Shown here piece by piece: positions 1,714 to 56,386 of a stretch of 64,000 bases of DNA. Position 1 is the first letter of the stretch, and each line of letters starts with the position of its first letter. The position numbers and the translations under genes were made by a program. This DNA comes from Thermoanaerobaculia bacterium. GTDB lineage: Bacteria; Acidobacteriota; Thermoanaerobaculia; Multivoradales; Multivoraceae. The stretch is from assembly GCA_963664405.1 (NCBI GenBank), contig OY761158.1, positions 1,856,001-1,920,000 on the forward strand, in the 5' to 3' direction. The notes under the pieces were generated by a model. The model worked only from the letters and a program-made list of their open reading frames with translations. It did no database searches and was not told the DNA's origin.

Positions 1714-1878
1714 CTAGACCAGCGTTTCCAAGGTTCGTGCACATAGCTCGAGGTCATTCTGTTCGCTGGCCAGGCGCGGCGACGCAGGCATATTGGGCAA
1801 TATGTCGAGGAGGCGCAACGCCGCCAGCGGGCAGAAGGGGCCGAGATGTGTACGCGAACTTTGGAGACGCTGGTCTAG
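1714..1878 (+). repeat. CTAG-bounded palindromic element (MITE/RPE-like), subfamily A, copy 1 (165 bp)
   Basis: CTAGACCAGCGTTTCCAAGGTTCG...CGAACTTTGGAGACGCTGGTCTAG; near-identical to 5951-6116 and 8616-8781; right CTAG supplies the TAG stop of 1875..2855. Confidence 0.92.
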
Positions 1879-2855
1879 AGATCGAAATGGCAGGCCACGG
1901 TGTGGGCTTGCTCGCCGGGGGCCGCGACTTCGCGTAGCGTCGGCACCTCGGTACGACAGCGGTCCTCGGCATGGGGGCAGCGGGGGTGGAAGTGGCAGCC
2001 GGTCGGCGGATCGATCGGCGACGGGACGTCACCCTCGAGGACCTGGAAGCCGGAGCGCTTGGTAGGGTCCGGAGCCGGGATCGCCGCAATCAGGGCCTGG
2101 GTGTAAGGGTGTTTGGGGCGTTCGTAGACGTCGTCCGCGCCCGCCGTCTCGACGATCTTACCGAGATACATGATGGCGATGCGATCGGAGACGTGCTTTA
2201 CCACTGCCAGATCGTGAGAGATGAAAAGGTAGGAGAGCCCGAGATCCTTCTGCAACTCGAGCATCAAGTTGAGGATTTGACTCTGAATCGAAACGTCGAG
2301 GGCGGAAACCGGCTCGTCACAGACAACTAGCTTGGGATCGAGCGCGATCGCGCGGGCAATGCCAATGCGCTGGCGCTGCCCGCCCGAGAACTCGAAGGGG
2401 AAGCGATCCAACGAGGTCTCCGGCAGTCCGACCTTCGCAAGGAGTGCGTGGACAAGCTCTTTTCGGTCCTTTTCGGTACCGACCTTGTGGACGACGTAGG
2501 GCTCCTCGAGGATCTTGGCCACGCTATGCCGAGAGTTGAGCGAGTCGGCGGGGTCCTGAAAAATCATCTGCAGCTCACGCCGGACGCCTTTCAGCTCGCG
2601 ACGGCCCAGTTTCACCAAGTCGGTTCCATCGAAGACGACACTCCCGGCCTGGGGACGGAGCAGACGGACGATCGAGCGGCCCAAGGTGGACTTGCCGCAT
2701 CCGGACTCCCCGACCAAGCCGAGGGTCTCCCCCGCACCCACTTCCAAAGCAACATCATCGACGGCCTTACAGACCGCGGTCGCGGTCATGAACACACCAC
2801 CGCGCACCGGGAAGTAGGTCTTGAGGCCGTTGACCTCGAGCAGTGGGGAGCTCAT
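1875..2855 (-). CDS. Oligopeptide ABC transporter ATP-binding subunit (OppF/DppF-like)
   Basis: GESGCGKST Walker A, FSGGQRQR, CDEPVSALD, C-terminal GCHFHPRC and VACH motifs. Confidence 0.95.
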   Translation of the reverse strand: MSSPLLEVNGLKTYFPVRGGVFMTATAVCKAVDDVALEVGAGETLGLVGESGCGKSTLGRSIVRLLRPQAGSVVFDGTDLVKLGRRELKGVRRELQMIFQDPADSLNSRHSVAKILEEPYVVHKVGTEKDRKELVHALLAKVGLPETSLDRFPFEFSGGQRQRIGIARAIALDPKLVVCDEPVSALDVSIQSQILNLMLELQKDLGLSYLFISHDLAVVKHVSDRIAIMYLGKIVETAGADDVYERPKHPYTQALIAAIPAPDPTKRSGFQVLEGDVPSPIDPPTGCHFHPRCPHAEDRCRTEVPTLREVAAPGEQAHTVACHFDL

Positions 2856-3907
2856 GCGTCGCCGTCTCTCCGCGTGCCGGCGATCTCCCGCCAGCGAAAG
2901 CAGCTGACCTGGTGATCTCCCTCCACCACCTGGAGCTCGGGCAGCTCCGCGGCGCAGCGCTCTTCGCGGTGCGGACAGCGATTCTCGAAACGACAGCCCG
3001 AGGGCAGGTCCAGCAGGCCCGGCACCATACCCTCGATCGTGTGAAGAGGCTGTTTGCGCGGATTTTCCAATCGGGGAATGGCCTCGAGTAGGCCGCGCGT
3101 GTAGGGATGACGCGGCTCGGCAAAGATCTCTTCTACCGACCCGGTCTCGGCGATGCGCCCCGCATACATGACCACCACGTCATCGCAGGTCTGAGCGATC
3201 ACTCCCAGATCGTGAGTAATGAGGAGGATCGACAGCCCCATCTCTTCTTGCAAGTCGCTCATCAGCTTCAAGACCTGAGCCTGGATGGTCACATCCAACG
3301 CGGTGGTCGGCTCGTCGGCGATGATGAGAGCTGGGCTATTGGCCAGCGCGATGGCGATCACTACGCGCTGGCGCATGCCGCCGGACAGCTGATGAGGGTA
3401 CTCGGCGTAACGGATCTCCGGCGACGGGATGCCGACCTGCCCCAGTAGCTCGATCGACCTGCGCATTGCATCCTGCGCTGTCAGGTCCTGATGCAACAGC
3501 AGCGCCTCGGAAAGCTGTCGACCTACCGGGTGCACCGGATTGAGCGCCGTCATCGGCTCCTGGAAGATCATGCCGATGCGAGCGCCGCGGATCTTTCCCA
3601 TCTCCTCCAGAGACAGATCGAGCAGATTCTCGCCGTCGAGGAGCACTTCGCCACCCAGAATCTGCCCCATGGGCTGGGGCAGAAGACGTGTGATCGAAAG
3701 TGCGGTGACCGTCTTGCCACAGCCCGACTCCCCCACCAAGCCAACCGTCTTGCCGCGAGCGACTTTGAAACTGACGCCGTCGACAGCGTTCACCCGCCCC
3801 ACATCGGTGTCGAAGGCGGTGACCAGGTTGCGCACCTCGAGAAGATCGTCCGAGGTGGCGCTCCGATCTGCGGTTGCGTCACTCACTCCCGGGCCGGTAC
3901 TTGTCAT
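2852..3907 (-). CDS. Oligopeptide ABC transporter ATP-binding subunit (OppD/DppD-like)
   Basis: [33 protein letters not shown]. Confidence 0.95.
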
Positions 3908-6143
3908 AGGTGAAGACGCCGGGCGGGAATGTCTTCCCTGACCGCTTCGCCGCCCGGGTCTCTTCCTTCAAATCCTCGTCGATCCAGTGCACCCAGTGAT
4001 CCTCGTAGTGGCCGGCCAGCTTCACACTGAAATCGTCGGGCCAACCCACCCAGCGCCACGACCCCATGCGCAGAAAGGGCTGCACGAAGCCGGGAATGAA
4101 GATCGCCGCTTCGTCGACGATCTCCTCCATCTGACGCGACAGCTCGAGCATCTCCCCTGCATCGTCCGAGCCACGATAACGCTCGATCAGCGGATCGAGC
4201 TCACGGCTGGCGAAGGAGTGAAGGTTGTTGGTCTGGGTCTTGACCTTGCGTTCCGGGTTCACAGACCCGTCGGCAAGAAACGCTTTATCGTAGGCGTTCA
4301 CCGAATGGTAGGTCTCCCAGTAACGCGGGTACATCTCCGGACTGACCGCGAAAGCGGTGAAGACGAGATCGTGCTTCTTCTCTTGCGCCTTCTTGAACGC
4401 AGCGGTGGCGTCGAGGACCTCGAGCCGGTACTCCAGACCCGCCTGCGCTGCTTCTTCTCTCAGGATGGTGAGGATGTCCTTGAAGCTCTGGTAACCGGTG
4501 GTCAAGGTAAAAGAGAGGCGCTGCCCTTGGGCGTTGACCAGGATGCCGTCAGACCCACGCTCGTGGAACCCGGCCTTGGCAAAGCTCTCGAGGGCTTTCT
4601 CGACCGAGTAGGAGCGAGCCTCGAGCGTAGGATGAGTGAACTCTCCGTACCCATCCGAGGAGGTCCGCATGCGGGTGTAGGCACCGCGGAAGTACTTTTC
4701 GATCACCAAGTCCCAGTTGGTGGCGAAGTGGAGACCCTGGCGAATGTCGCGGTCCTCCAGCAGCGGCTGCGCCGTGTTGATCCAGAGTCCCCAAGTCGGC
4801 CGCGGGACGTCGTTATAGAACTCGTGCTTGTGAACATAGCCGTCCCGAACCAGAGGATGGTCGTCGGCGAGCTTGTCGTACCAATACTCGGGCTCTCGCA
4901 TCCGCGAACTATCCAGCTCCCCACGCTTGAACACCTCGAAGGCCTTCGCTTTGTCGCGAATGATCACGAAGTGAATGCGCTCGGGGTTGAACCTGTAGCG
5001 CCAGAACTTGTTCTCCCTCGCCCACCAGTTGTCGACGTGGGTGAAGGTGAGCGATCGTCCTTTGTGAATGTTCTCTGGACGGATCTCATAGGCACCCGTT
5101 GTCGGCATGAAACGCCACTGATAACGGTCGACGAAATCGTCGCCTAGACTCTTGAAGAAGTGCCGCGGAAGAGGCCGTAGCTCGAGGACGCGAGCGTTCA
5201 TGTCGGGCTTGGCCTCGGGCACCGAGACCGAGAAAGTGAGCTCGTCGTAGCGGGCTACCTCGGTGAAGTTGCGGTTGAAGAAATTGTTCGAATACGGCGC
5301 ACGGATGTATTTCGACTGGTAGAAGAAGAACGCGAAGAGAGCATCATCGGTGGTGACCGGATGCCCGTCCGACCAGCGAGCAGCGGGGTTGAGTCGGACA
5401 TACACCGTTCTCGTCTCGCGATCGATCGCCCACTCCTTCGCCAAGGCGGGGTAGTAGCGGTGCCCGTTGGGCCCGATATTGGTTACATTGGGATGGCGTT
5501 GGCCATAGGTGTAGAGCGTTTCGTCCTGTAGATAGCTGCGGAACGAGCCGTTGGCATCGGGGCCAACGGTACGTAGGGTGCGCGGAAAATCCGCCAGCGC
5601 CATAAATAGGGTGCCGCCCCTCTTGGCCTCCGAAGACCCGATATCGGGCAGGTCCATTCCGTCGTCCCATTCGAGGTCGGCGGGAATGTCCTCCGGTGTC
5701 CCGAAGCGAAAGAGCTTGGGAAACTCTCCTGCCGCCTGCCGCGAGTCGAGCTCCTCCTGGGTGATCTCTCCGCGCTCGAAGGCCTCGCGTACTCGAGGAG
5801 GCATCGAGACCTTGGTGCGGTAGAACTCCTCGATCTCCGCGGTGTTGTCTCTCCCTAGGTCGGGAAAGTCCATGTCTGCGCCCGCGTCGCCTGCTCCACA
5901 ACCGATCAGGAATGACCCCAGCGACACCGCCGAGATGAAGGTCCAGAGCGCTAGACCAGCGTTTCCAAAGTTCGCGCACATATCTCGGGCCCTTCTGCCC
6001 GCTGGCGTCGTTTCGCCTCCTCGACATATTGCCCAATATGCCTGCGTCAGCGCGCCTAGCCAGCGAACAGAATGCCCTCGAGCTATGCAGCACGAACTTC
6101 GGAAACGCTGGTCTAGATCTCGATTTGGCATTTGTGCCCTCAT
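3879..6143 (-). CDS. Peptide ABC transporter substrate-binding lipoprotein (YejA-like, family 5) carrying an in-frame palindromic insert in its signal peptide
   Basis: ATG 6143 just after the upstream permease stop; lipobox FLIGC; AKRGGTL, ARWSDGHPVTTDD and LEDRDIRQGL motifs. Confidence 0.88.
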   Translation of the reverse strand: MRAQMPNRDLDQRFRSSCCIARGHSVRWLGALTQAYWAICRGGETTPAGRRARDMCANFGNAGLALWTFISAVSLGSFLIGCGAGDAGADMDFPDLGRDNTAEIEEFYRTKVSMPPRVREAFERGEITQEELDSRQAAGEFPKLFRFGTPEDIPADLEWDDGMDLPDIGSSEAKRGGTLFMALADFPRTLRTVGPDANGSFRSYLQDETLYTYGQRHPNVTNIGPNGHRYYPALAKEWAIDRETRTVYVRLNPAARWSDGHPVTTDDALFAFFFYQSKYIRAPYSNNFFNRNFTEVARYDELTFSVSVPEAKPDMNARVLELRPLPRHFFKSLGDDFVDRYQWRFMPTTGAYEIRPENIHKGRSLTFTHVDNWWARENKFWRYRFNPERIHFVIIRDKAKAFEVFKRGELDSSRMREPEYWYDKLADDHPLVRDGYVHKHEFYNDVPRPTWGLWINTAQPLLEDRDIRQGLHFATNWDLVIEKYFRGAYTRMRTSSDGYGEFTHPTLEARSYSVEKALESFAKAGFHERGSDGILVNAQGQRLSFTLTTGYQSFKDILTILREEAAQAGLEYRLEVLDATAAFKKAQEKKHDLVFTAFAVSPEMYPRYWETYHSVNAYDKAFLADGSVNPERKVKTQTNNLHSFASRELDPLIERYRGSDDAGEMLELSRQMEEIVDEAAIFIPGFVQPFLRMGSWRWVGWPDDFSVKLAGHYEDHWVHWIDEDLKEETRAAKRSGKTFPPGVFTYDKYRPGSE
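5951..6116 (-). repeat. CTAG-bounded palindromic element, subfamily A, copy 2 (166 bp, in frame within CDS)
   Basis: Full element with terminal inverted repeats; reads LDQRFRSSCCIARG...NFGNAGL in the frame of the binding protein. Confidence 0.92.
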
Positions 6144-6153
6144 AGGTCGCCAG

Positions 6154-7245
6154 TCACATATAGACCGTGAACTTCTTCGGGTCGAAGGCCTCACGCACGG
6201 CCTCGCCGACGAAGTTCACCAGGGTCAAGATGAAGACCAGGGTGACGAAAGCGGAAGAGATGATCCAAGGGGAAGTGGTCAGGCTCGCCGTTCCCTGCTT
6301 GAGCAGCTCGCCGATCGAGGGAGTCGGCGGCGGAAGCCCCCAGCCGAGGAAGTCGAGGGCGGTCACGGCGACGATCGCGTTGATGACGGTCAGCGGCACG
6401 AAGGTCACGATCGTCGAAAGCACATTGGGAATGATGTGGCTGAAGATGATCCGCGAAGTTGAAGCACCGAGAACGATGGCAGCCGCCGTGTAATCCCTCT
6501 CCTTCTCGCGATAGGTGGCGGTGCGCATGTAGTAGGTCATCGATGTCCACGAGAAGAGCACCATGATGGCGAGCAGAATCGTGATTCGGGTCGGGATATC
6601 GAAGCTGGTCGGAATCACCGAGAAGACGATGATCACCATGTAGAGGAAAGGGATATTCGACCAGATCTCGATCAGACGCTGCACAAGAAGATCGAAGACG
6701 CCTCCGAAATAGCCCATCATGCACCCTAGAGAAATCCCGATCAGATAGGTCAGCGACATGAAGGCCAGCGCAAAAAGAATAGCGGTGCGAAAGCCGAAGG
6801 CGAGGCGCGCAAAGATGTCGCGGCCGGTCGAGTCGGTGCCCAGATAGTGCCTCGAGGCCAGCGAAGGCGGCGCAGGCTTGAACACTCCTTCGTAGGCATC
6901 GTTCTCATAGGCGTCGTAGGGAACGAGAGGCATGAGCACCAGGTTCTCGCCGCCTTCGCGCTCGAATCTCCGTTTGAGATCGCGATAGTCGACCGGAGTC
7001 AGCGCATCTACACCCACCGATCCGAACTCGTCACCCAGCCGCACCCGAGTGTAGGTGGGGAACGACCACTCACCCTCGTAGCGCACCGCCAGTGCACGAC
7101 TATTGATGAACACCTCACCCACCAAAGAGAGAGCGATAAAGACCACCAGGATCAGAAACGAAAAATAGCCACGTCGTATTTCTCTGAAGCGCTTCAACTT
7201 CTTTGCAGTAAGAGGGTTGAGCTTCATCGCCCAGGTCCGGCTCAA
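6154..7245 (-). CDS. Peptide ABC transporter permease (YejE/OppC-like)
   Basis: LNPLTAKKLKRFREIRRGYFSF, HYLGTDSTGRD, LDFLGWGLPPPTPSIGELL. Confidence 0.93.
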   Translation of the reverse strand: MSRTWAMKLNPLTAKKLKRFREIRRGYFSFLILVVFIALSLVGEVFINSRALAVRYEGEWSFPTYTRVRLGDEFGSVGVDALTPVDYRDLKRRFEREGGENLVLMPLVPYDAYENDAYEGVFKPAPPSLASRHYLGTDSTGRDIFARLAFGFRTAILFALAFMSLTYLIGISLGCMMGYFGGVFDLLVQRLIEIWSNIPFLYMVIIVFSVIPTSFDIPTRITILLAIMVLFSWTSMTYYMRTATYREKERDYTAAAIVLGASTSRIIFSHIIPNVLSTIVTFVPLTVINAIVAVTALDFLGWGLPPPTPSIGELLKQGTASLTTSPWIISSAFVTLVFILTLVNFVGEAVREAFDPKKFTVYM

Positions 7246-8267
7246 GAGAAGCGAATGCGCGGATCGATCGCGGCAACGAGCGCGTCGGAGATGATGTTGC
7301 CCACCAGCAGCGCCAAGCTCGACGCGAAGACAACCCCCATGACCACCGGGTAGTCTCGATCGAAGACGGCGGTCAGGCCGAGCAGACCGAAGCCGTTGAT
7401 GTCGAAGATGGTCTCGATCAGAAACGAACCGCTGACGATGAGCAAGACGTTCTGGCCGAAGGTGGTGGCGATCGGAATCAGCGAATTTCGTAACGCATGC
7501 CCGGTGACCGCCTTGCGAAACGAAACCCCCTTGGCGACGGCGGTGCGGACATAGTCGGCAGACAGGTTGTCCATGAGGTGGTTCTTCATCAACTGCGTGG
7601 TTACCGCAAAGCTACCGACGAGATAGCAGCACAACGGCAGGACCGCATGGTGCAACACATCCAAGACCTTGCCCCAGGGACTCAGAAGGTCGAAGTCGAA
7701 ACCGATGAACCCACCCATCGGGAACCACTCGAGGCGAGCGGCAAAAAAGAAAAGCAGAAGACTTCCCATCACGTAAGGAGGAACCGCATACCCCATGAAG
7801 ACGAAGATCGAGGTGACGTTGTCCATCGCACTGCGATGTTTGATTGCTTTCACCACCCCGAGCGGGATGCACACCGAGTAGGTGATGATTACCGTGGCCA
7901 AGCCGAAGAACAGAGAGATGGGCAACCGAGAGCGCATGATGTCGACTACCGGCTCGTTATACCGGTAGGACGAGCCAAGATCACCTCGGAGGACCTTGCC
8001 CAACCATTCGACATAGGAGACGAGCCACGGTTTGTCGAAGCCGTAGTACTCCTTCAGTTGCTGGATCTGCTCATCCGAGAGCGCCTGTCCCTGCCCGGAG
8101 AGCGAATTCGAGCTGCCGCCGCCAGTAGCATCGAGCTGTTGCGCTTCCATGATTGCCCGCTCGAGCGGACCTCCCGGCACCACCCGGGTGATCAGGAAAA
8201 CGACAATTGTGATGCCAAGTAGGGTCGGGGGAATTAGCAAGAAGCGGCGGATGAAGTAGTCCCGCAT
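7242..8267 (-). CDS. Peptide ABC transporter permease (YejB/OppB-like)
   Basis: YFIRRFLLIPPTLLGIT..VPGGP, DYVRTAVAKG, HALRN, IDPRI. Confidence 0.93.
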   Translation of the reverse strand: MRDYFIRRFLLIPPTLLGITIVVFLITRVVPGGPLERAIMEAQQLDATGGGSSNSLSGQGQALSDEQIQQLKEYYGFDKPWLVSYVEWLGKVLRGDLGSSYRYNEPVVDIMRSRLPISLFFGLATVIITYSVCIPLGVVKAIKHRSAMDNVTSIFVFMGYAVPPYVMGSLLLFFFAARLEWFPMGGFIGFDFDLLSPWGKVLDVLHHAVLPLCCYLVGSFAVTTQLMKNHLMDNLSADYVRTAVAKGVSFRKAVTGHALRNSLIPIATTFGQNVLLIVSGSFLIETIFDINGFGLLGLTAVFDRDYPVVMGVVFASSLALLVGNIISDALVAAIDPRIRFS

Positions 8268-8300
8268 GGACCACGGGAGGCTAGCACAGCAGGCCCCGAA

Positions 8301-8606
8301 TCAAGGGTGGCCCAGCCCGGGAGTCGGGCGCGCTCCTAGCCCTTCCTGTCGCTGTCGCCAGCGTTCTCGCGCTTTCTCCGCTTCTTCTTCACGGTTCTTG
8401 GGCGCAACGGTGGCCACCAGCCGAGACAGCAGCTGCGCGGTGACCTCGGCGATAGCGTCTACGGCTTCTTCGAAGGCGGCCTCATTGGCGCGCGACGGCT
8501 TGGTAGAGCCGCTCACCTTGCGAACATACTGGAGCGCTGCGGATCGGACTTCCTCATCCGTGGCGGCGGGCTCGTAATTGTGGAGAGTACGGATATTGCG
8601 GCACAT
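8301..8606 (-). CDS. DUF2277 family protein
   Basis: MCRNIRTLHNYEPAATDEEVRSAALQYVRKVSG family signature; GGAG RBS. Confidence 0.85.
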   Translation of the reverse strand: MCRNIRTLHNYEPAATDEEVRSAALQYVRKVSGSTKPSRANEAAFEEAVDAIAEVTAQLLSRLVATVAPKNREEEAEKARERWRQRQEGLGARPTPGLGHP

Positions 8607-8615
8607 TCTCCAATA

Positions 8616-8781
8616 CTAGACCAGCGTTTCCAAAGTTCGTGTGCAATAGCTCGAGGTCATTCTGTTCGCTGGCCAGGCGCGCCGACGCAGGCATATTGGG
8701 CAATATGTCGAGGAGGCGAAACGCCGCCAGCGGACAGAAGGGGCCGAGATATGTGCGCGAACTTTGGAAACGCTGGTCTAG
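8616..8781 (+). repeat. CTAG-bounded palindromic element, subfamily A, copy 3 (166 bp)
   Basis: Perfect 24-bp terminal IR CTAGACCAGCGTTTCCAAAGTTCG; lies between divergent genes. Confidence 0.92.
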
Positions 8782-8846
8782 GCCAAGTCGCCTGCGAGCC
8801 TGGTAGCCTGCGTGCACCAACCCAGACACCCAACAGGGGGCAAGCC

Positions 8847-10832
8847 ATGACCCAACTAGACCAGCGTTTCCAAAGTTCGTGCTGCATAGCTCGAGGTCAT
8901 TCTGTTCGCTGGCTAGGCGCGCTGACGCAGGCATATCGGGCAGCCGCCATCGACTCGTATTCGCGGCCAATTCTCACCTCTGTAGGCCCCCTGCTCGCCC
9001 TGGTGCTCGGTGTGACGGCGCTGGCGTGCAGCTCCGGCGAGCCCACCGCTCCACCGGCGGAGACCAGCTCGAGCTCGGAGAGGCCGGCTCCGAATCCACT
9101 GCGCAGCGCCTACTTCGGCGACCTTCACGTGCACACTCGCTATTCGATGGACGCCTACATCTTCGATGTCAGGGCCTCGCCCGACGACGCCTATCGATTC
9201 GCCAAGGGCGAGCCTCTCGATCATGTCAGCGGCCATCGCATGCAGCTCCAGACTCCCTTCGATTTTCAGGCGGTCACCGACCACGGCATCCTGCTCGGCG
9301 CTCTGCCGGCAATGGATGACCCGGAGGACCCGCTCTACAACGAGCCTATCGCCAAGGAGCTGCGTGAGCTGGGGCCGGCGGAAGGGTTTCAGCGCGGCCG
9401 GGAAGCCTTTGAAGGCGGAGAGTTCGAGCAGATGGATTACTCCCATGCCACGCGCTCGGCCTGGCAGCGGATCATCGAGGCGGCCGAGCGTCATAACGAT
9501 CCCGGCCACTTCACCACCTTCGTCGCCTATGAGTACACCTCGACCGCCCCTGATCAGGGCAACCTCCACCGCAACGTGATCTTTCGCGGCAGCGAGGCAC
9601 CCGAAATGCCGCTCAGCTCCGCGGACTACCCCGACCCGGAGGATCTGTGGCGCTGGCTCGACGACCTACGAGCCCAGGGCATCGAAGCGTTGGCGATTCC
9701 ACACAACTCGAACGGCAGCAACGGCCAGATGTTCCGCCTCGAGACCCTGTCCGGCGAGCCTCTCGACGCCGACTATGCCGATCTGCGCATGCGCAACGAG
9801 CCTTTAGTCGAGGTCACCCAGGTCAAGGGTACGTCCGAGGTACACCCGCTGCTGTCCCCAAACGACGAGTGGGCTGACTTCGAGATCTTCCCCTACCGCA
9901 TCTCCACCCGGCTGGACAGCCAGCCGGCCGGCAGCTACGTCCGCGATGCCTACGTCAGCGGGTTGATCCTGGAGGAGACCAAGGGTTTCAATCCCTTCCG
10001 CTTCGGTCTCATCGGGTCGACCGACACCCACAACGCGGCAGGGACCCCGGACGAGTGGCACTTCCACAGCAAAGTCGGCGCCCGCGACGGTACCCCTCAG
10101 CGCCGCGGATCGGTGCCCCTGGACGAGCCCGGAGAGGACGGCGAGCCGGCCTACGTCGATGGCTATTTCCACCTCTGGGGCGCCGCCGGTGTCGCCGGCG
10201 TCTGGGCGGAGGAGAACACCCGCGAGTCGATCTACGATGCTTTCCGGCGCAAGGAGACCTTCGCCACGACCGGGCCTCGCATCCAAGTCCGATTCTTCGC
10301 CGGTTACGACCTCGCGGAGGATCTCGCCTCGGCTCCCGACAAGGTAGCCAGGGCCTACGAAGGTGGAATACCGATGGGGGCCGATCTGAGCGCCGATGGC
10401 GAGCGAGCGCCGCGTTTTCTGCTGTGGGCGATTCAGGACCCCAACAGCGCTCCGCTCCAACGTCTGCAGATCGTCAAGGGCTGGGTAGACGACGAGGGGG
10501 GCCACGATCAGGTTTTCGACGTCGCCTGCTCCGACGGCGCGCAGCCCGACCCGGAAACCCATCGCTGCGCCGACAACGGCGCTAGCGTGGATCTTTCTGA
10601 TTGCAGCTTCTCGCGTGATTCCGGCGCGGCGGAGCTGAGCGCGGTATGGAGTGACCCCGGCTTCGAGCCCGCCCAGCACGCCGTCTACTACCTGCGAGTG
10701 ATCGAGAACCCCACTTGCCGTTGGTCGACATGGGACGCCTTGAGGGCGGGTGTGGAGCCGCGCGCCGACTTACCTACGACCATCCAAGAGCGAGCCTGGT
10801 CGTCGCCGATCTGGTTCGTTCCCGGAGGCTGA
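8847..10832 (+). CDS. DUF3604 family lipoprotein (PHP-like metal-binding motifs)
   Basis: AGGGGG then ATG 8847; lipobox ALAC; YFGDLHVHTRYSMD, AVTDH, NLHRNVIF, IPHNSNGSNG, QERAWSSPIW. Confidence 0.88.
   Translation: MTQLDQRFQSSCCIARGHSVRWLGALTQAYRAAAIDSYSRPILTSVGPLLALVLGVTALACSSGEPTAPPAETSSSSERPAPNPLRSAYFGDLHVHTRYSMDAYIFDVRASPDDAYRFAKGEPLDHVSGHRMQLQTPFDFQAVTDHGILLGALPAMDDPEDPLYNEPIAKELRELGPAEGFQRGREAFEGGEFEQMDYSHATRSAWQRIIEAAERHNDPGHFTTFVAYEYTSTAPDQGNLHRNVIFRGSEAPEMPLSSADYPDPEDLWRWLDDLRAQGIEALAIPHNSNGSNGQMFRLETLSGEPLDADYADLRMRNEPLVEVTQVKGTSEVHPLLSPNDEWADFEIFPYRISTRLDSQPAGSYVRDAYVSGLILEETKGFNPFRFGLIGSTDTHNAAGTPDEWHFHSKVGARDGTPQRRGSVPLDEPGEDGEPAYVDGYFHLWGAAGVAGVWAEENTRESIYDAFRRKETFATTGPRIQVRFFAGYDLAEDLASAPDKVARAYEGGIPMGADLSADGERAPRFLLWAIQDPNSAPLQRLQIVKGWVDDEGGHDQVFDVACSDGAQPDPETHRCADNGASVDLSDCSFSRDSGAAELSAVWSDPGFEPAQHAVYYLRVIENPTCRWSTWDALRAGVEPRADLPTTIQERAWSSPIWFVPGG
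8856..8942 (+). repeat. 5' half of CTAG-bounded palindromic element, subfamily A, copy 4 (in frame within CDS)
   Basis: CTAGACCAGCGTTTCCAAAGTTCG through GCAGGCATATCGGGCA, after which homology stops. Confidence 0.88.
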
Positions 10833-10866: not shown

Positions 10867-10934
10867 GGATGCGCCGTCCTCGGCGCCATGTTGTCTAGCC
10901 GGAGGAAATGATAGCGATCATTTCAGGAGGCTAG
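10867..10934. repeat. REP-like double-hairpin repeat (family 2), locus 1
   Basis: TGCGCCGTCCTCGGCGCCA plus CTAGCCGGAGGAAATGATAGCGATCATTTCAGGAGGCTAG; recurs at 54330-54396 and 56797-56927. Confidence 0.8.
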
Positions 10935-11592: not shown

Positions 11593-12327
11593 AGCTGGTA
11601 GCCTACGCCTCGCTCGAGGAGGCTACGGCTCTCTGCACCGCAGCCGTTGAACCATAGCCGATGGAAAAACGTGCACCCACTCCCCTTCTGACCGAAGACG
11701 AGCACGATCCTGTGCACCTCGAACGTGAGCACGGAACGTCGCCGATCTTTCTCACCTGTGACCACCCTGGGCACCGTCTCCCACGCGAGCTCGGCGATCT
11801 CGGTCTGAGTCCCCTGGAGCTTCGCAGGCACATCGGTTGGGATATCGGGGCACTTGGTATCGCCACCCGCCTGTCGAAGGAGCTCGACGCCACCCTGGTA
11901 GCGCAGCTTTACTCCCGACTGGTCATCGACTGCAACCGCAGAGTCGACGTTCCGAGCTCAATCCCCACTCGCAGCGAGAACACCGTCGTGCCGGGGAACC
12001 TCGATCTCGACCCCGGTGCCAGAAAAGCGCGCGAGCGGGCGATTCATGCTCCTTACCACGATACCGTCTCACGACTTCTCGACACGCGGCGAGACCAGCA
12101 GAGGCCCACAGTGCTCATCGCCGTCCACAGCTTCACACCCATCTACGACGGCGTATCGCGACCCTGGCACATCACTTTCTCGACCGACGAAGAGCGTTCG
12201 GTGGTGGATCCGATGCTCGACTGGCTCAGAGCCGAGTCCGACCTCGTGGTCGGCGACGGCGAGCCCTTCACGGTCGAGGACGTGGACTACACCCTTCCCG
12301 TTCACGGTATTCGCAGAGGCATACCGC

Positions 12328-12404
12328 TTGGGTTCAAGGGGTCGTCGCAACGTTGCCTTGGTGAGCAGAGTGTACAAACTCATCGAAGACTTCGGCAGGG
12401 GTTC
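12328..12404 (-). mobile_element. IS30-family terminal fragment
   Basis: 77-bp copy of 12820-12896 with 3 substitutions, including the IR GGTTCAAGGGGTCGTCGCAAC. Confidence 0.85.
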
Positions 12405-12819
12405 TGAGCGGTCACGGTTTCGTGGACACCAAGTTAAGCCCCATCGGGGCAGTTCCTATTCTGCATCAGTTCGGGTAGTCAGCTTCGGACGAGGCTGTGC
12501 GAGGTTCGGGGAGCGCAGCCTCCCTTCGGATCCGACCGCCGGTCGCGCGTGAGTTCACGCTGCCCCTTCGAAGGCCTCGGGGCTCAGGAATCCGAGCGTC
12601 GAATGCTGGCGTCTCAGGTTGTAGAACACTTCGAGGTAAGAAACCGCTTCGTCGTGAGCTCGCTGACGAGTCTCGAAGGGTCGGTCCCAGACCTCGGTCT
12701 TGAGACTGTCGAAGAAGCTCTCCAAGACCGCATTGTCATAACAATTTCCGACGCCGGACATGCTGCAGCGAAACCGCAGCTCAGCCAGCCGATCCTGGTA
12801 AGCCTTCGAGGCGTACTGC
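12405..12819 (-). mobile_element. IS3-family remnant (3' half of integrase core plus right IR)
   Basis: QYAS..SMSGVGNCYDNAVLESFFDSLKTE..FYNLRRQHSTLGFLSP; terminus GTGTCCACGAAACCGTGACCGCTCA on the minus strand. Confidence 0.85.
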
Positions 12820-14270
12820 TTGGGTTCAAGGAGTCGTCGCAGCGTTGCCTTGGTGAGCAGAGTGTACAAGCTCATCGAAGACTTCGGCAGGGGTTCTCCA
12901 GCCGAGGGTCTTGCGGGGTCGGCCGTTGAGTGCGAGCGCGACCGCGGCGAGGTCGTCGCAGGAGTATCTGACAAGGTCGGTGCCCTTCGGGAAGTACTGG
13001 CGTAGTAGTCCGTTGGTGTTCTCGTTGGTGCCCCGCTGCCAGGGGCTGTGCGGGTCGCAGAAGTAGATCGCGAGGCCGGTATCGACGCGGAGTTGAGCGT
13101 GTTGAGCCATCTCGGCGCCCTGGTCCCAGGTCAAGGACCGGCGGAGCTGCTCGGGCAGCGTGGTGATTGACACCGCGATCGCGTCACGGACGGCTTCGGC
13201 GCCGTGCCCGGCGAGGGCCGGCCCGTTCTTCACCCTCGATTCGGTCCCGTGCCCTTCCATGCGGGGCAGGTGCAGCAGCATCGTGAACCGCGTAGTGCGT
13301 TCGACGAGGGTCCCGATCGCTGAGCTCTCGAGCCCGACGATCAGGTCGCCTTCCCAGTGACCCGGCACGGCCCTGTCGCCGGCTTCGGCGGGGCGTTCGC
13401 TGATCATGATCTCCGGAGTTACAAATTTCTTGCCTCTCCCCCGGGTTCGCGCATGCGGCACTCGTAGCGCTCGCCCGGTTCGCAGGCACGCGACGAGCTC
13501 GCGTTTGAGGGCTCCTCGACCTTGGATGTAGAGCGCTTGGTAGATCGCCTCGTGAGAGATCCGCATCGACTCATTATGGGGGAAATCAATCCGAAGCCGG
13601 TTCGAGATCTGCTCCGGACTCCAGGATTTCGCCCAACGCCGATCCTGGCGACGGCCGTGCCGACGGCCGATCCAACGCACATCCGGACCCGGCACCAGCT
13701 CCCCGTCAGGCCTTGCGATCACGCCGGCGAGGCGGTTCTGCACGTACTCACGCAAGGCATCGTTCGCGGCAAGCTTGGAGACCTTCGGACGGCTGGCGCG
13801 CCGCTCCGCGTGCCACTGCGCAGTCGTGGCCCGATAAGTTACGGCACGGCTGCGAGTCGCCGCGTTGCGGCGCAGCTCCCGCGAAATCGTCGACGGTGAA
13901 CGACCCAGGCGGCGAGCGATCTCACGTACCCCAACATGCTGAGCGTGAAGGATGGCGATCTCTTCACGCTCGGCGAACGACAGATAACGCCCCGACACCG
14001 GAGCCAACGAGATAGGTCGCATTCCACCAGCTTGCCTGAACCATCTCGACCCGACAGCCGGCGACACCCCAGCCTCTGTTGCGGCGTCCTCGCTGGACGC
14101 CCCACGAGCGATCGTCTCCCAGAACCGGATCCGGTCCTCGCGCCGCGCTGTCGAGGGCCGGCCAGGTGACCGCATCTGGCCACGCATCGCTCGAATCGCA
14201 CCCTGACACTTGCCAACTCCCATCGAAACACCTCCATCACGAGATGTTGCGACGACCAGTTGAATCCGCC
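12820..14270 (-). mobile_element. IS30-family insertion sequence
   Basis: IRs GGTTCAAGGAGTCGTCGCA / TGCGACGACCAGTTGAATCC flanking a transposase. Confidence 0.92.
12826..14223 (-). CDS. IS30-family transposase
   Basis: WSPEQI, ISHEAIY, PGHWEGDL, LTWDQGAEM, PWQRGTNENTNGLLRQYFPKGTDL. Confidence 0.95.
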   Translation of the reverse strand: MGVGKCQGAIRAMRGQMRSPGRPSTARREDRIRFWETIARGASSEDAATEAGVSPAVGSRWFRQAGGMRPISLAPVSGRYLSFAEREEIAILHAQHVGVREIARRLGRSPSTISRELRRNAATRSRAVTYRATTAQWHAERRASRPKVSKLAANDALREYVQNRLAGVIARPDGELVPGPDVRWIGRRHGRRQDRRWAKSWSPEQISNRLRIDFPHNESMRISHEAIYQALYIQGRGALKRELVACLRTGRALRVPHARTRGRGKKFVTPEIMISERPAEAGDRAVPGHWEGDLIVGLESSAIGTLVERTTRFTMLLHLPRMEGHGTESRVKNGPALAGHGAEAVRDAIAVSITTLPEQLRRSLTWDQGAEMAQHAQLRVDTGLAIYFCDPHSPWQRGTNENTNGLLRQYFPKGTDLVRYSCDDLAAVALALNGRPRKTLGWRTPAEVFDELVHSAHQGNAATTP

Positions 14271-34122: not shown

Positions 34123-34245
34123 GGCGCTGTGTCTCGTTCCGTAGTCACCGAGTGGAAGCCGAGACCCTCCTGCGACGCAGCAGGGCTCCGCCAACCGTTA
34201 AGATGCATTCGCTCATGATAGGACAACAACGTGCACCCTGAGGCC

Positions 34246-43975: not shown

Positions 43976-44668
43976 CTAGAAACCCAGCTCCACCCGCATT
44001 TCGTCACTGGGGCCAACAATCTCGATCTCCCGCTCGCTCCGGTGCTCGGGCTCGAGATGCCACACCGAGAGCTTGTAGGAACCCGGTGGCACATCGGGCA
44101 GCGAGAAGGTTCCATTAGCATCGGCGACGACCGCGTAGGGAGTCGAGCTGACCACGATGAACGCCGCCATCGCCGGGTGTATGTCACACCCTACGTCGAA
44201 GACTCCGGGCGCTGGGAATGTGTGTTGGTAGGAGACGAAGGCGGGTGATGCGACGTTGAACTCGGTCTCACCCGACTCGCCGTCGACCACCCGCACATTG
44301 TGAAAGACGTCTTCGCTGTTGATGAACTCGACCGGCTCGCCCGCACCGACGAGGAGCACGGCGGGATGGAACACGCTCCCCAGCTGGTCCATGTACTTCG
44401 TACCCTCTTGTGTCGCGGGAACAACTCTGTCCAGGGCCTCGAGCATGACTACCGCAGGGTGACCCCCTACCGCAGGCGGAGCTTTCCCCGTCACCCGGAC
44501 ACCGAGACTGGGCTCCGCGGTTTCTATCGCAGCCGCCGGCAGGCCTTCGGTCGGGGCCTCCGCGCAGCCACCACTGGTCACTAAGAGCACAGGGACCGCG
44601 CCACGCAATAGACGAAGAGCACCTTGGGATACACCGCACACGGCGGAGCAAAGACTTCTGGGAATCAT
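43976..44668 (-). CDS. Cupredoxin-domain lipoprotein with carboxypeptidase-regulatory-like C-terminus, copy B
   Basis: SGGC lipobox-like; FHNV..GCDIHPAM type-1 Cu ligand pattern; DVPPGSYKLSVWH. Confidence 0.8.
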   Translation of the reverse strand: MIPRSLCSAVCGVSQGALRLLRGAVPVLLVTSGGCAEAPTEGLPAAAIETAEPSLGVRVTGKAPPAVGGHPAVVMLEALDRVVPATQEGTKYMDQLGSVFHPAVLLVGAGEPVEFINSEDVFHNVRVVDGESGETEFNVASPAFVSYQHTFPAPGVFDVGCDIHPAMAAFIVVSSTPYAVVADANGTFSLPDVPPGSYKLSVWHLEPEHRSEREIEIVGPSDEMRVELGF

Positions 44669-51038: not shown

Positions 51039-51701
51039 CTAGGGACTCAGATCCAACCGCACCTCGCCCCCGTCCCCGCCGATCTGGACCTCCCGCTCAC
51101 TCCGCTGCTCGGCCTCGAGATGCCACACCGTGAGCTTGTAGGACCCCGGCGGCACATCGGCCAGCGCAAAGAAGCCATCTTCATCGGCGACGACCGCGAA
51201 GGGAGTCGAGCTGACCACGATGAAGGCCGCCATCGCCGGGTGGATGTCACACCCAAGGTCGAAGACACCGGGCTCTGCGAAGGTGTGCGGGTAAGAGACG
51301 AAAGGGGGCGATGCGACGTTGAACTCGGTCTCACCCGACTCGCCGTCGACGGCCCTCACATTGTGGAAGACATCTTCGCTGTTGATGAACTCGACAACCG
51401 CCCCCGCACCGACAACAAGCACCTTTGGATGGAATGTGCTCCCGAGCTGGTCCATGTACTTCGTGCCCTCCAGAGCCCCGGGAGCACTTCCGTCCAAGGG
51501 CTCGAGCATGACCACCGCAGAATGGCCCCCTAGCGCCGGCGGCGCCTTCCCGGTCACTCGGACACCGGCGCTGGGCTCCGCACTTTCCGGCGCGGAAGCC
51601 GGCGCGCTTTCTCTGGGTACGTCGGTGCAGCCACCGCTCAACAGTACGAGTGCCGGCACCCCCCCGCGCAGAAAACGAAGAACGCTTGGGAAACCGCGCA
51701 T
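51039..51701 (-). CDS. Cupredoxin-domain lipoprotein, copy A
   Basis: LSGGC; FHNV..GCDIHPAM; close paralog of 43976..44668. Confidence 0.8.
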   Translation of the reverse strand: MRGFPSVLRFLRGGVPALVLLSGGCTDVPRESAPASAPESAEPSAGVRVTGKAPPALGGHSAVVMLEPLDGSAPGALEGTKYMDQLGSTFHPKVLVVGAGAVVEFINSEDVFHNVRAVDGESGETEFNVASPPFVSYPHTFAEPGVFDLGCDIHPAMAAFIVVSSTPFAVVADEDGFFALADVPPGSYKLTVWHLEAEQRSEREVQIGGDGGEVRLDLSP

Positions 51702-51714
51702 AGCGCAAAGACAG

Positions 51715-54333: not shown

Positions 54334-54396
54334 GCTCCACAAATGATAAATATCATTTGCTCCGCCTAGTTGTTTTCTGGCGCCGAGGACGGCGCA
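54330..54396. repeat. REP-like double-hairpin repeat (family 2), locus 2
   Basis: CTAGGCTCCACAAATGATAAATATCATTTGCTCCGCCTAG plus TGGCGCCGAGGACGGCGCA; first CTAG contains the gene stop. Confidence 0.75.
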
Positions 54397-54527
54397 CTTG
54401 GGCGCTGCTTCCTATTCGCTCACGGAAACGGCTCAGGACGAATACTCGGACACACTCCTAGCTCCAGAAAACGCGCCTTCGGCCCGTTTTCCGGCCCATC
54501 CCCGCCTGAGAACTACCGAGAACGGTG

Positions 54528-56213
54528 CTACCGAGTGAGCTTGCGGTAGGAGATGCGGTGGGGGCGGTCCGCGGCGTCTCCCTTGCGGCGGCGTAGATCT
54601 CGCTCGTAGTCGCTGTAGGAGCCCTCGAACCAATAGGCCTCGCTATCGCCTTCGAAGGCGAGGATGTGAGTGGCGACCCGATCGAGGAACCAGCGATCGT
54701 GAGAGATGACGAGGGCACTGCCCGCCAGCTCTTCCAGCGCCGTTTCCAGGGCTCGTAGCGTGTTGACGTCGAGATCGTTGGTCGGTTCGTCGAGCAGAAG
54801 GACGTTGGCGCCCGACGTGAGCACCTTCGCCAAGTGGACGCGGTTTCGCTCGCCGCCGCTCAAGGCACCGACAGACTTCTGCTGATCCGCGCCACCGAAG
54901 CCGAAACGGGCCACGTAGGCTCTCGAGTTGACCTCGCGCGAGCCCAAGAGCATGGTCTCTCCACCTCCTGTGATCTCCTCCCATACCTTTGCACTTTCTT
55001 CGAGAGAGTCGCGGCTCTGGTCGACGTAGCCGAGGCGTACGGTCTCGCCCACGACCAAGCTGCCCTCGTCGGGCTCTTCCTGGCCCACGATCATGCGAAA
55101 GAGCGTCGTCTTTCCGGCTCCGTTGGGACCGATGATGCCGACGATGGCCCCCGCCGGGATATCCAGCGACAGGTCGTCGTAGAGCAGGCGATCGCCGTAC
55201 GCCTTGCGCACTCCCTCGGCCTTGATGACGACGCCCCCGAGTCGTGGGCCGGGCGGCACATAGATCTCCATGTCTTCCCGACGCTGCTCGGACTCTTGCT
55301 CGAGCAGTCGACCGTAAGCGCTGACCCGCGCCTTCGACTTGGTCTGCCGCGCCTTGGGCGTCATGTGGATCCACTCGAGCTCGCGTGCGAGAGTGCGCTG
55401 TCGCGCCGACTGGACCTTCTCTTCGCGCCGCAGCCGCTCCTGCTTCTGCTCCAGCCACGAGGAGTAGTTCCCCTTCCAGGGGATCCCTTCGCCGCGATCG
55501 AGCTCGAGAATCCAGCCCGCTACGTTGTCGAGGAAGTAGCGATCGTGAGTGACGGCGATTACGGTCCCGGAGTAGTCGTTGAGATGCTTCTCGAGCCAGC
55601 CCACGGTCTCGGCGTCGAGATGGTTGGTTGGCTCGTCGAGTAGGAGGATATCGGGCGCGCGCAGGAGCAGGCGACAAAGGGCTACCCGTCGCCGCTCGCC
55701 GCCCGAGATTACGTTGACCCGAGTATCGCCGGGGGGGCAGCGCAGCGCGTCCATCGCCAGCTCCAGGCGGCTGTCGAGATCCCAGGCGTTGGTGCGATCG
55801 AGAACCTCTTGCACTTCTCCCTGGCGCTCGATCAGCTTCTCCATCTCCGCGTCCGACATCTCTTCGCCGAACTTCTCATTGATCTCATCGAACTCGCCAA
55901 GAGCCGCGGCGATCTCCGCGACCCCCTCCTCCACTACCTCTTTGACCGTCTTCGTATCATCCAGCTGCGGCTCCTGCTCCAGGTAGCCGACGGTGAAGCC
56001 CGGCGAGAGGACCGTTTCACCGATGTGCTCACGATCCACCCCCGCCATGATCCGTAGCAGGCTGGTCTTCCCAGAGCCGTTGAGGCCGAGGACCCCGATC
56101 TTGGCGCCGTAGAAATACGACAACGAGATGTCGCGCAGGACGGTCTTGCCGCCGTCAAAAGCCTTTCCCACCTCGACCATCGAGTAGATGATCTTTTTGG
56201 AGTCCTCTGTCAC
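54528..56213 (-). CDS. ettA: Energy-dependent translational throttle ABC-F protein
   Basis: ISLSYFYGAKIGVLGLNGSGK, SGGERRRVALCRLLL, GIPWKGNYSSWLEQKQERL, PPGPRLG, PHRISYRKL; GTG start 56213. Confidence 0.93.
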   Translation of the reverse strand: MTEDSKKIIYSMVEVGKAFDGGKTVLRDISLSYFYGAKIGVLGLNGSGKTSLLRIMAGVDREHIGETVLSPGFTVGYLEQEPQLDDTKTVKEVVEEGVAEIAAALGEFDEINEKFGEEMSDAEMEKLIERQGEVQEVLDRTNAWDLDSRLELAMDALRCPPGDTRVNVISGGERRRVALCRLLLRAPDILLLDEPTNHLDAETVGWLEKHLNDYSGTVIAVTHDRYFLDNVAGWILELDRGEGIPWKGNYSSWLEQKQERLRREEKVQSARQRTLARELEWIHMTPKARQTKSKARVSAYGRLLEQESEQRREDMEIYVPPGPRLGGVVIKAEGVRKAYGDRLLYDDLSLDIPAGAIVGIIGPNGAGKTTLFRMIVGQEEPDEGSLVVGETVRLGYVDQSRDSLEESAKVWEEITGGGETMLLGSREVNSRAYVARFGFGGADQQKSVGALSGGERNRVHLAKVLTSGANVLLLDEPTNDLDVNTLRALETALEELAGSALVISHDRWFLDRVATHILAFEGDSEAYWFEGSYSDYERDLRRRKGDAADRPHRISYRKLTR

Positions 56214-56220
56214 GGGGAAT

Positions 56221-56386
56221 CTAGTGCCCTGTACCAGTAGTTCGTCACATAACTCGCTGGCCCTTTTGCGGCCTGCCGTCGTTGCGCCTCCTCGAAATAT
56301 TCCCAATATGACTTCGTCGGCGCGCCTTGACAGCCCACAAAATGACTGCGCGATTTATGCAACGAACCACTGGTACAGGACACTAG
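56221..56386 (-). repeat. CTAG-bounded palindromic element, subfamily B (166 bp)
   Basis: 32-bp imperfect IR CTAGTG(T/C)CCTGTACCAGT(G/A)GTTCG; core AGGCGCGCCGACG-AG-CATATT-GGG-AATAT-TCGAGGAGGCGCAACG shared with subfamily A. Confidence 0.88.

Follow-up and report, generated by a model that had tools for sequence, protein, structure and literature searches.

The 64,000-nucleotide stretch of DNA analyzed here (the window) carries several copies of a repeat family that we read as a new MITE-like, palindromic, non-autonomous element targeting CTAG. The eight full copies in hand, from three genomes, are 166 bp long in seven cases and 165 bp in one, and each pairs along its whole length into a single hairpin whose mismatches favor one strand. 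We are confident that this is a mobile, non-autonomous hairpin element evolving under single-strand constraint. The full reading, in which a MITE-like mobile hairpin is moved by a DDE transposase and constrained in its RNA form, is put forward tentatively, as a quite possible account of the same data. The family adds to the repeats recorded from the Acidobacteriota and is a further instance of an established type of bacterial repeat, with some unusual features; it also offers an exceptionally clear view of a DNA repeat evolving under visible one-strand constraint.

A preliminary description of this DNA had reported five loci, all of which were recovered at their coordinates with lengths of 165, 166, 166, 87 (a half copy) and 166 bp. 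The first copy, c1 (1714..1878, plus strand), is an A-type copy of 165 bp that has lost one base at alignment column 28; it starts 32 nt past the stop of a GGDEF-EAL gene, and the converging ABC ATPase gene (1875-2855, minus) takes its TAG stop from the right CTAG of the copy. The A-type copy c2 (5951..6116, minus, 166 bp) lies within the gene for a YejA-like solute-binding lipoprotein of the SBP_bac_5 type (3879..6131, minus), which belongs to a minus-strand ABC transporter operon spanning 1875-8267. Also of A-type, c3 (8616..8781, plus, 166 bp) sits between divergent genes, 9 nt from the start codon of a DUF2277 gene (minus) and 65 nt from a DUF3604 gene (plus). The half copy, c4h (8856..8942, plus), runs for 87 nt (29 codons) from the left arm to the apical loop, has c2 as its nearest relative (97% over 87 nt) and falls within the first 32 residues of the DUF3604 protein (8847..10832, plus). 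The fifth copy, c5 (56221..56386, minus, 166 bp), is of B-type, with the core of the other copies but other arms, and its end lies 7 nt upstream of the GTG (56213) at which an ABC-F ATPase gene probably starts. The first four loci are of mixed orientation within 7 kb (+, -, +, +). The A-type terminal 24-mer, allowing up to three mismatches, matched seven times in the window and never in 100 shuffles, and the core 23-mer matched five times against none in shuffles. A covariance-model search of both strands of the window with filters off returned no copy beyond the four full copies and the half copy, which was matched weakly (15 bits, E 0.055); c1 scored 165.5 bits on the plus strand and 56.9 on the minus.

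Outside the window, a contig scan with a short pattern hit at least 62 loci; among the matches listed, 59 were chance and three were real. These three loci, all in Acidobacteriota metagenome-assembled genomes (MAGs), contribute four further full copies of 166 bp, two of which lie in opposite orientation within 360 bp at locus L011. Acidobacteriota MAGs provide both the best homologs of the neighboring genes in the window and the other carriers, and among the matches listed the element has so far been found only in a few genomes of this phylum. A literature search on MITEs in Acidobacteriota brought up no description of such an element. Most copies are intergenic, and six of nine lie at most 35 nt from a start codon or just inside it, beside genes that are mutually unrelated (transporter, DUF3604, ABC-F, sigma-70, IF-3/PMI and GST/luciferase-like).

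Insertion is recorded at c2. The YejA-like protein in the window is 750 aa long and 97% identical (674/694 residues) to a homolog of 696 aa, the sole gap being one of 54 aa between NRDL and LWTF. The copy enters after codon 6 (CTA) and remains in frame, adding 54 codons to the n-region of the signal peptide. Mobility, as put forward in the preliminary description, is borne out by this presence/absence difference, and it is because of this empty site, seen at the protein level, that we call the element mobile. The half copy sits inside the DUF3604 frame after codon 3. A database protein of 661 aa is identical to this frame, with its start at the ATG at 8847, and the 29 codons of the half copy are missing from all 25 homolog N-termini examined, of at least 120 proteins listed. 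CTAG is present at both ends of seven of the eight full copies, the exception having one left end that reads CGAG, and at the one site compared with an empty homolog the insertion has added a net 162 bp (54 codons) to a CTAG. The flanks show no further duplication outside CTAG at the copy junctions, which take the form C-TA...TA-G and fit equally well a TA duplication, a 4-bp CTAG duplication and single-stranded DNA (ssDNA) insertion 3' of CTAG.

Alignment of the eight full copies demonstrates that the whole element forms one imperfect hairpin of about 80 bp, with 68 pairs, 31 of them with changes on both sides. Pairing extends to 95.4% of 540 cells, compared with 80.4 ± 1.1 in 500 shuffles, none of which reached the observed value; this control takes the copies as independent and ignores their kinship, the eight being few and related by descent. 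Sliding the partners by one to three columns reduced pairing to 35-43%. At least five arm versions occur among the eight copies, with compensatory pair changes that leave the length unaltered, and even the +1/-1 indel pair that separates the A and A' types preserves 166 bp. The arms of the element pair over its entire length. In A copies the terminal 24 nt agree with no more than one mismatch, and the first 12 nt are common to the B, D and E types.

Within the hairpin lies a conserved, asymmetric and non-palindromic core (alignment columns 59-110; 8674..8725, plus, in c3). It comprises an apical hairpin, CATATT-GGGC-AATATG, at 8692-8707 of c3, purine-rich internal loops with invariant residues (G69 A70 / G98 A99 and G72, A74 / G95 A96) and, between these loops, a covarying pair, C71-G97, that is CG in five copies and GC in three. 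The core motifs and co-varying closing stem given in the preliminary description appear in the alignment as stated, and its picture of fixed length, CTAG ends, a conserved core and exchangeable arms is supported by the eight-copy alignment and the pairing. Across arm classes the core is better conserved than the termini, whereas within a class the termini are conserved: two copies of 89.8% identity, c3 and L011a, differ by alignment count at one of 48 terminal and about 16 of 119 interior positions.

The mismatches in the hairpin are strongly biased towards one strand. The 544 pair cells of the eight copies comprise 464 Watson-Crick pairs, 51 G·T, one A·C, 24 other and four gapped cells. By position, G·T occurs at 19 pairs and A·C at one; columns 5-32, which cover the variable arms, have 12 such G·T positions and no A·C. 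In the three young A copies, all six transitions at paired positions switch between Watson-Crick and G·T, and none yields A·C. Several G·T pairs are held across arm classes (50:119 in seven of eight copies, 51:118 in six, 76:93 in seven and 42:128 in five). Correspondingly, the RNA minimum free energy of the forward strand lies 18.7-27.9 kcal/mol below that of the reverse in all eight copies, and the consensus folds into 68 pairs at -110.3 kcal/mol on the forward strand and 55 pairs at -73.2 kcal/mol on the reverse. The asymmetry likewise appears under DNA energy parameters (-64 versus -52 kcal/mol for c3). Mismatches compatible with G·U on one strand had been noted before, including four of four in the first 32 nt of copy B, and these are indeed G·T. 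The proposal that the element is selected to fold as RNA held up in its one-strand bias, but the data do not single out RNA as the constrained strand, because DNA parameters give the fold asymmetry too.

The favored strand had further been described as the sense strand at every locus. This is so for the three unambiguous loci (5951-6116, 8856-8942 and 56221-56386) but less clear for the rest, the remaining six of nine copies being placed at a contig edge or where the genes on either side diverge or converge. The copies at L011 (1784-1949), L028 and L042 have as nearest neighbor an opposite-strand gene at a distance of 8-32 nt, so that read-through into RNA of the favored orientation is not general. 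Within 1500-9200, no sigma-70-like promoter was detected inside the copies or close to them. Rfam returned no match in the whole window at gathering scores and, around the copies with E up to 10, just miRNA and viral chance matches (E 0.27-3.9).

Comparison with known repeat systems places the element close to several of them. Bacterial MITEs are generally about 50-800 bp long, lack coding capacity of their own, and carry inverted repeats and a short target-site duplication. The element agrees in size (165-166 bp) and in having an encoded peptide that varies between A and A', in its terminal inverted repeats, which here pair along the whole length, in the CTAG found at both ends of all full copies but one, and in its presence/absence polymorphism. 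In the Correia/NEMIS elements of Neisseria and the pneumococcal RUP, which are TA-duplicating MITEs, the ends are conserved and the middle varies. They resemble the element in being small and non-autonomous, with inverted repeats and TA junctions and a frequent location upstream of genes, but differ in that its middle is the part most conserved across classes and in that no promoter was detected in its copies within 1500-9200. A likeness to enterobacterial ERIC elements had been suggested, which does not hold as a sequence relationship: a blastn search of 5,426 complete E. coli genomes with c3 as query (word 11, E up to 10) found no ERIC-like sequence, and its seven records each had one chance match of 26 nt inside yejM. 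ERIC elements, of about 127 bp, are hosted by Enterobacteriaceae and Vibrionaceae. They share with the element a whole-length imperfect palindrome, a conserved central part and a position beside genes, and differ in length (127 versus 166 bp), in host phylum and in that the element has several arm versions around one core. ERIC elements are transcribed hairpins with orientation-dependent effects as RNA, and the hairpins of Correia/NEMIS are cut by RNase III as RNA (PMC10969869). On this analysis, ERIC may be the best match for how the element works.

Two further systems share individual features. Rickettsia palindromic elements (RPEs) are palindromic repeats tolerated in frame within protein-coding genes (PMC10969869). 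The element likewise inserts in frame, with 54 codons at c2 and 29 at c4h, but its host is not Rickettsia, its copies are mostly intergenic and its peptide varies between subfamilies. REPINs (PMC3116915) are hairpin repeats in which a variable spacer separates two invariant ends. Both their length and their pairing are important, compensatory changes occur frequently, and a single-stranded intermediate has been proposed for them. The layout of the element is the reverse, with a conserved apex, variable arms and CTAG flanks. In REP-RAYT systems the repeats flank a RAYT (Y1) gene present in one copy, whereas no Y1 gene accompanies the element among the 159 frames of the window. To our knowledge, REPINs make no target duplication.

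The absence from the window of any insertion sequence with matching ends, asserted previously, was confirmed. Pfam analysis of the 159 frames identified, as transposition genes, only IS30-like and IS21-like ones and no IS630, IS5, Y1_Tnp, DDE_3 or HTH_Tnp, and the A-type terminus was not found in the window away from the copies. The preferred reading would have a transposase from outside the window move the element in trans, duplicating either TA within CTAG, in the style of IS630/Tc1-mariner, or CTAG itself, in the style of IS5. IS630-family elements duplicate TA, and the target favored by IS630 itself is TA within CTAG (PMC2170065 and a title in its reference list). Termini conserved within a class and the sense orientation of all three unambiguous copies also speak for this reading. 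The constraint would act on an RNA hairpin produced by host read-through transcription, as for ERIC and Correia; transcribed MITE hairpins act at the RNA level through RNase III (Correia) and RNase E (ERIC), as documented in PMC10969869. Copies could persist inside the 5' ends of genes because their net length is divisible by three and their CTA-G frames are mostly open.

Several observations sit uneasily with the preferred reading. Recognition of inverted repeats by a DDE enzyme predicts termini better conserved than the core, the opposite of what is seen between arm classes, and cut-and-paste of double-stranded DNA supplies no cause for G·T over A·C in spreading lineages. The window has no matching transposase, three outside copies have an opposite-strand gene as nearest neighbor, the fold asymmetry recurs under DNA parameters, the promoter search within 1500-9200 and the Rfam search were negative, and the eight full copies are a small, related sample. 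We think it unlikely, though worth stating, that the family represents a class of mobile hairpins, maybe the first of its class, that are read by shape and not by terminal sequence. An enzyme would then read the apical core, with its tandem G·A loops and AT-rich tip, on one folded strand, either DNA or RNA, and cleave at the basal CTAG, leaving stem sequence free and total length fixed. If true, this would explain why five sets of arms are interchangeable, why the length stays at 166 bp and why G·T outnumbers A·C by 51 to 1.

The constrained strand might instead be DNA, a possibility that we regard as real but doubtful. A folded ssDNA hairpin would be moved by an enzyme that recognizes structure, for instance a Y1/HUH transposase (as in IS200/IS605 or the REP-associated RAYTs) or a folded-ssDNA recombinase, and that reads the apical core and cuts at CTAG while the stem sequence is free. 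This accounts for an invariant core and CTAG with arms that need only pair, for one-strand G·T tolerance in spreading lineages whatever the orientation of host genes, and for a length held through the indels that separate A from A'. It is also consistent with the fold asymmetry under DNA parameters and with the end of c4h exactly in the apical loop, as breakage of a DNA hairpin would leave it; REPINs, moreover, are compensating hairpin repeats that can depend on an ssDNA enzyme (PMC3116915). CTAG at both ends with a 162-bp gain is, however, the classic staggered-cut footprint of a DDE transposase, and the frames of the window include no Y1 transposase. IS200/IS605 elements have two subterminal hairpins and no single whole-length hairpin, and in REPINs the layout is the opposite one. 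Orientations vary over 7 kb in the window and over 360 bp in L011, and so do not show the replication-strand bias that IS608-like elements typically have. It is quite improbable, by contrast, that the element is an ordinary selfish MITE free of single-strand constraint, with a G·T excess due to mutational bias, such as A-to-G and C-to-T on the non-template strand of transcribed DNA, and paired arm changes due to both ends tracking one transposase. One protein must indeed fit both inverted repeats, which would also yield paired changes; the window copies can all be read as sense-oriented, and their private changes are mostly A-to-G on that strand. Yet the bias extends to subfamily-defining positions of copies from other genomes near opposite-strand genes, and copies of opposite orientation within 7 kb share it, which excludes a replication-strand effect. 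In addition, G·T persists at four positions in different arm classes, and protein tracking predicts mismatches of any kind, not the 12 G·T and zero A·C positions of the arms.

Two explanations place function in the product of the element. That it is a duplicated stand-alone RNA gene or cis-regulatory RNA, with its own promoter and a protein-binding core, appears very unlikely. Its purine-rich loops and invariant apical hairpin with covarying pairs do resemble a binding site, and proximity to start codons in six of nine copies would suit such a role, but Rfam gave no match even with E up to 10, no promoter-like site was found within 1500-9200, copies lie in coding frames and on a stop codon, the adjoining genes have nothing in common, and the 54 codons are cleanly present or absent between proteins of 97% identity. 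A mobile coding module like the RPE inserts of Rickettsia, kept for the peptide it adds, is hardly credible. The host frame is left intact by both intragenic copies (c2 and c4h), and in five of the seven copies of 166 bp the CTA-G frames are open on both strands, for which shuffling gives a chance of 0.01-0.05 per copy. On the other hand, E-type copies contain stops in these frames, copies are chiefly intergenic, and the +1/-1 indel pair between A and A' places 55 nt in different frames, so that the peptide is not conserved; a phmmer search of 1.84 billion proteins with this peptide as query yielded six matches, one of them judged chance from its table row.

Gene callers take the element into proteins, as in the DUF3604 start, the long SBP frame and ORFs in other records, and annotation is distorted by its absorption. 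The 54-codon insert of c2 also offers a natural experiment on the tolerance of a lipoprotein signal peptide for additional sequence in its n-region.

The five element loci of the preliminary description were borne out in the window sequence, comprising three full copies of the A type at 1714-1878 (+, 165 bp), 5951-6116 (-, 166 bp) and 8616-8781 (+, 166 bp), a half copy at 8856-8942 (+, 87 bp) and the full copy B at 56221-56386 (-, 166 bp). The three A-type copies, detected by the repeat finder as repeats D3, I1 and I2, are 92-96% alike in pairwise comparison, the half copy corresponds to the left half of the element and ends in its apical loop, and copy B indeed combines the core common to the A copies with different arms. 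Matches to the 24-nt A-type terminus with up to 3 mismatches number seven in the window versus none in 100 shuffles, and those to a core 23-mer five versus none in shuffles. With filters switched off, a covariance model derived from every full copy identified no additional copy in the window; its scores were 158-170 bits for one strand versus 54-62 bits for the opposite strand. Its weak match at 27710-27814 was rejected as an element copy and corresponds to the repeat-rich end of an IS21-like element.

Across 185,579 species genomes, a 22-base core pattern yielded zero matches, and a looser 17-base pattern yielded at least 62 loci; among the matches listed, 3 were real and 59 were due to chance. 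Locus L011, in an Acidobacteriota MAG, contains two copies in opposite orientation with ~193-194 nt between them, while L028 and L042, in another Acidobacteria MAG, are one real locus each, and all four copies in these loci are exactly 166 bp long. Blastn searches returned no match for the A and B copies among 72,556 plasmids or for the A copy among 50,697 phages, and Rfam yielded nothing relevant for the whole window at gathering scores or around the copies at E values up to 10, the element matching none of its families. Given that the real loci are few and all in Acidobacteriota, and that plasmids, phages and Rfam were empty, the family appears, as far as seen among the matches listed, to be rare and acidobacterial. 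The closest homologs of the flanking genes carry Acidobacteriota, Holophagales or Thermoanaerobaculia source names. A phmmer search of 1.84 billion proteins with the peptide from one element frame produced six matches, five of which were inspected; P0246 is encoded on the same 6.78-Mb contig as the DUF3604 protein of the window, and P0245 (1,630 aa; 18 short stretches), judged from its table row alone, was set aside as a likely chance match.

Alignment of the eight full copies in a single orientation spans 167 columns, and the sample comes from three genomes and is related by descent. Columns 33-135 are conserved across all eight copies, and columns 5-32 and their pairing partners occur in five versions (A, A', B, D and E). 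Arms of the A and A' classes begin CTAGACCAGCGT; those of B, D and E all begin CTAGTGTYSTGT and are unrelated beyond it. RNAalifold predicts a single hairpin of 68 pairs, 31 of which show changes on both sides. Pairing is maintained in 95.4% of 540 cells versus 80.4% in shuffles, with the observed value reached by none of 500, and sliding the partners by 1-3 columns leaves only 35-43% paired. The non-palindromic apex carries an invariant tip hairpin (CATATT-GGG(C)-AATATG), and the apical core presents purine-rich internal loops with invariant G and A, between which lies a covarying pair (CG in five copies, GC in three). The A and A' classes differ by one extra base in the loop at the tip, which is offset by a base missing from the right arm, and total length stays constant at 166. 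Two known RNA folds were considered and rejected for the core: a hammerhead-like motif, suggested by CGAAAC in two copies, is unconserved in the others, and the loop layout, judged by eye, misfits a kink-turn.

The strongest result of the analysis is a strand bias in the mismatches of this hairpin. As had been claimed on fewer pairs, mismatches are mostly compatible with G·U on one strand: among 544 pair cells, 51 are G·T and one is A·C, the remainder being 464 Watson-Crick pairs, 24 other mismatches and 4 gapped cells. The G·T cells occupy 19 pair positions and A·C a single one, and in the variable arms alone the counts are 12 versus none. Consistently, RNA folding favors the same strand by 18.7-27.9 kcal/mol in all eight copies, and the consensus forms 68 pairs (-110.3 kcal/mol) on the favored strand versus 55 pairs (-73.2 kcal/mol) on the other. 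Six transitions at paired sites were counted among the three young A copies, and every one of them switches between a Watson-Crick and a G·T pair. Replication-strand mutation pressure fails as a cause, because the bias is the same in oppositely oriented copies that lie within 7 kb. Since DNA parameters also give an asymmetry (-64 vs -52 kcal/mol for the same copy), the bias alone does not identify RNA or DNA as the molecule that would be constrained.

The clearest insertion site lies in a YejA-like solute-binding lipoprotein gene on the minus strand, whose product reads MPNRDL, then 54 residues from copy 5951-6116, and then ALWTFISAVSLGSFLIGC, where the closest homolog (97%; 674 of 694 residues identical) reads MTNRDLRLWTFISALSLGSFLIGC. 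The window protein has 750 aa versus 696 aa in the homolog and this 54-aa gap is the sole one, so the gene has gained 162 bp, or 166 bp minus one CTAG. Judged from this comparison, the copy is inserted into the predicted n-region of the lipoprotein signal peptide. Similarly, the half copy at 8856-8942 accounts for 29 codons of the DUF3604 frame. An identical protein in the database starts at ATG 8847, three codons ahead of the half copy, which is absent from the N-termini of the 25 DUF3604 homologs inspected among 120 listed. Copy 1714-1878 coincides with the TAG that ends an ABC ATPase gene and leaves the protein unaltered, and copy B ends 7 nt ahead of the GTG at which an ABC-F gene probably starts. 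The flanks of the copies show no duplication beyond CTAG. Outside CTAG, the plus-strand flanks at 1879-1892 and 6117-6130, following the first two A copies, are alike (AGATCGAAATGGCA vs ATCTCGATTTGGCA; repeat D9), possibly by chance. CTAG is under-represented in the window, with 84 sites where base composition predicts 222 and a Markov estimate 129; 11 of the 84 belong to element copies.

Both CTA-G frames are open in five of seven 166-bp copies, compared with 1-5% of shuffles. This is suggestive of frame tolerance and no more, because E-type copies contain stops in these frames. A conserved encoded peptide was rejected, as A and A' copies are read in different frames.

The proposal that the favored strand is the sense strand at every locus holds in the window for the three unambiguous copies, located within the lipoprotein gene, within the DUF3604 gene and between co-directional genes 5' of the ABC-F gene, and may not be general beyond it. 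Each of the other six copies is either flanked by divergent or convergent genes or located at the edge of a contig. An opposite-strand DUF2277 gene starts just 9 nt from copy 8616-8781, and the nearest gene is likewise on the opposite strand for the copies at L011 1784-1949 (luciferase-like gene, with the copy 32 nt upstream), L028 (sigma-70 gene, with the copy 8 nt past the stop) and L042 (phosphomannose isomerase gene, with the copy 15 nt upstream). Of the nine copies, six are either at most 35 nt away from a start codon or shortly past one within the gene, and two are at stop codons; target availability or selection could be the cause. At L011 1425-1949, the stretch between the two oppositely oriented copies, which differ in arm class, contains the beginning of a 96-aa frame (1603-1893) that matches no Pfam family. 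A promoter scan found no sigma-70-like promoter in or near the copies within 1500-9200.

The CTAG at both ends and the 162-bp gain match the footprint of TA duplication within CTAG, and an IS5-type enzyme making a 4-bp duplication leaves the same footprint. A protein reading the tips would fit two observations: the 48 terminal bases of the A class are better conserved than the interior, and the first 12 bases are common to B, D and E. According to passages of PMC2170065 and a title among its references, members of the IS630 family duplicate TA, and the preferred target of IS630 is TA within CTAG. The window encodes no candidate for the mobilizing enzyme: a Pfam search of 159 frames revealed only IS30-like and IS21-like genes, and no IS630, IS5 or Y1 transposase in the window. 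Pure cut-and-paste transposition is disfavored, because across classes conservation is higher in the core than at the ends and because a double-stranded DNA reaction offers no cause for a one-strand bias. Our favored but tentative reading is that of a MITE that would rely for its movement on a DDE enzyme supplied in trans from outside the window and whose hairpin would be constrained as RNA in host transcripts. Its main rival, a single-stranded DNA hairpin intermediate recognized by a structure-specific enzyme, accounts for the conservation pattern more simply, but neither an enzyme nor orientation evidence supports it, and we consider it rather unlikely.

We place the element among the palindromic MITEs as a new addition. 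It is unusual in three respects: its arms are exchangeable around a single core, its length is constant, and its one-strand wobble bias is very strong. In its working it would most resemble ERIC and Correia, transcribed palindromic MITEs that, in the accessible text of PMC10969869, provide precedents for hairpin effects in transcripts through RNase E and RNase III, respectively. The proposed likeness to ERIC does not extend to sequence, as a blastn search of E. coli genomes with the A copy gave chance matches only. In-frame insertion is common to RPEs and the element, whereas its layout differs from that of a REPIN as described in the excerpt of PMC3116915. The seen part of PMC8841776 names MITEs just in its reference list, and that of PMC11602168 contains nothing on the family.

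The window also harbors a second short repeat family, with 68-nt units at 10867-10934, 56798-56865 and 56860-56927 that are 78-94% alike, two of them in tandem (56798-56927). Each unit combines a GC hairpin with a GGAAATGAT-AGC-GATCATTTCC hairpin, the latter between two CTAGs in two of three units, and the units lie at gene ends: past the DUF3604 stop, over a GST stop and just before a Rieske stop. The 3' end of an IS30-like transposase gene (12826-14223, -; HTH_38 and rve) shares a 90-nt repeat (12316-12405 and 12808-12897; 492 nt away, 94% identity) that overlaps the end of an N-formylglutamate amidohydrolase frame, which suggests a remnant of a second IS30-like copy. The IS21-like element (25298-27831, -; IstB and an IstA-like gene), with its repeat-rich end at 27690-27850, adjoins a second IstA-like fragment in opposite orientation (27822-28730, +). 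Nearby, part of the gene at 34231-35412 recurs (repeats D4 and D10) as a truncated GT2 glycosyltransferase frame (23950-24339). A 300-nt direct repeat (43976-44275 and 51039-51338; 84% identity) lies within two paralogous CarboxypepD_reg-like-domain genes on either side of a MacB/HlyD-type efflux cluster.
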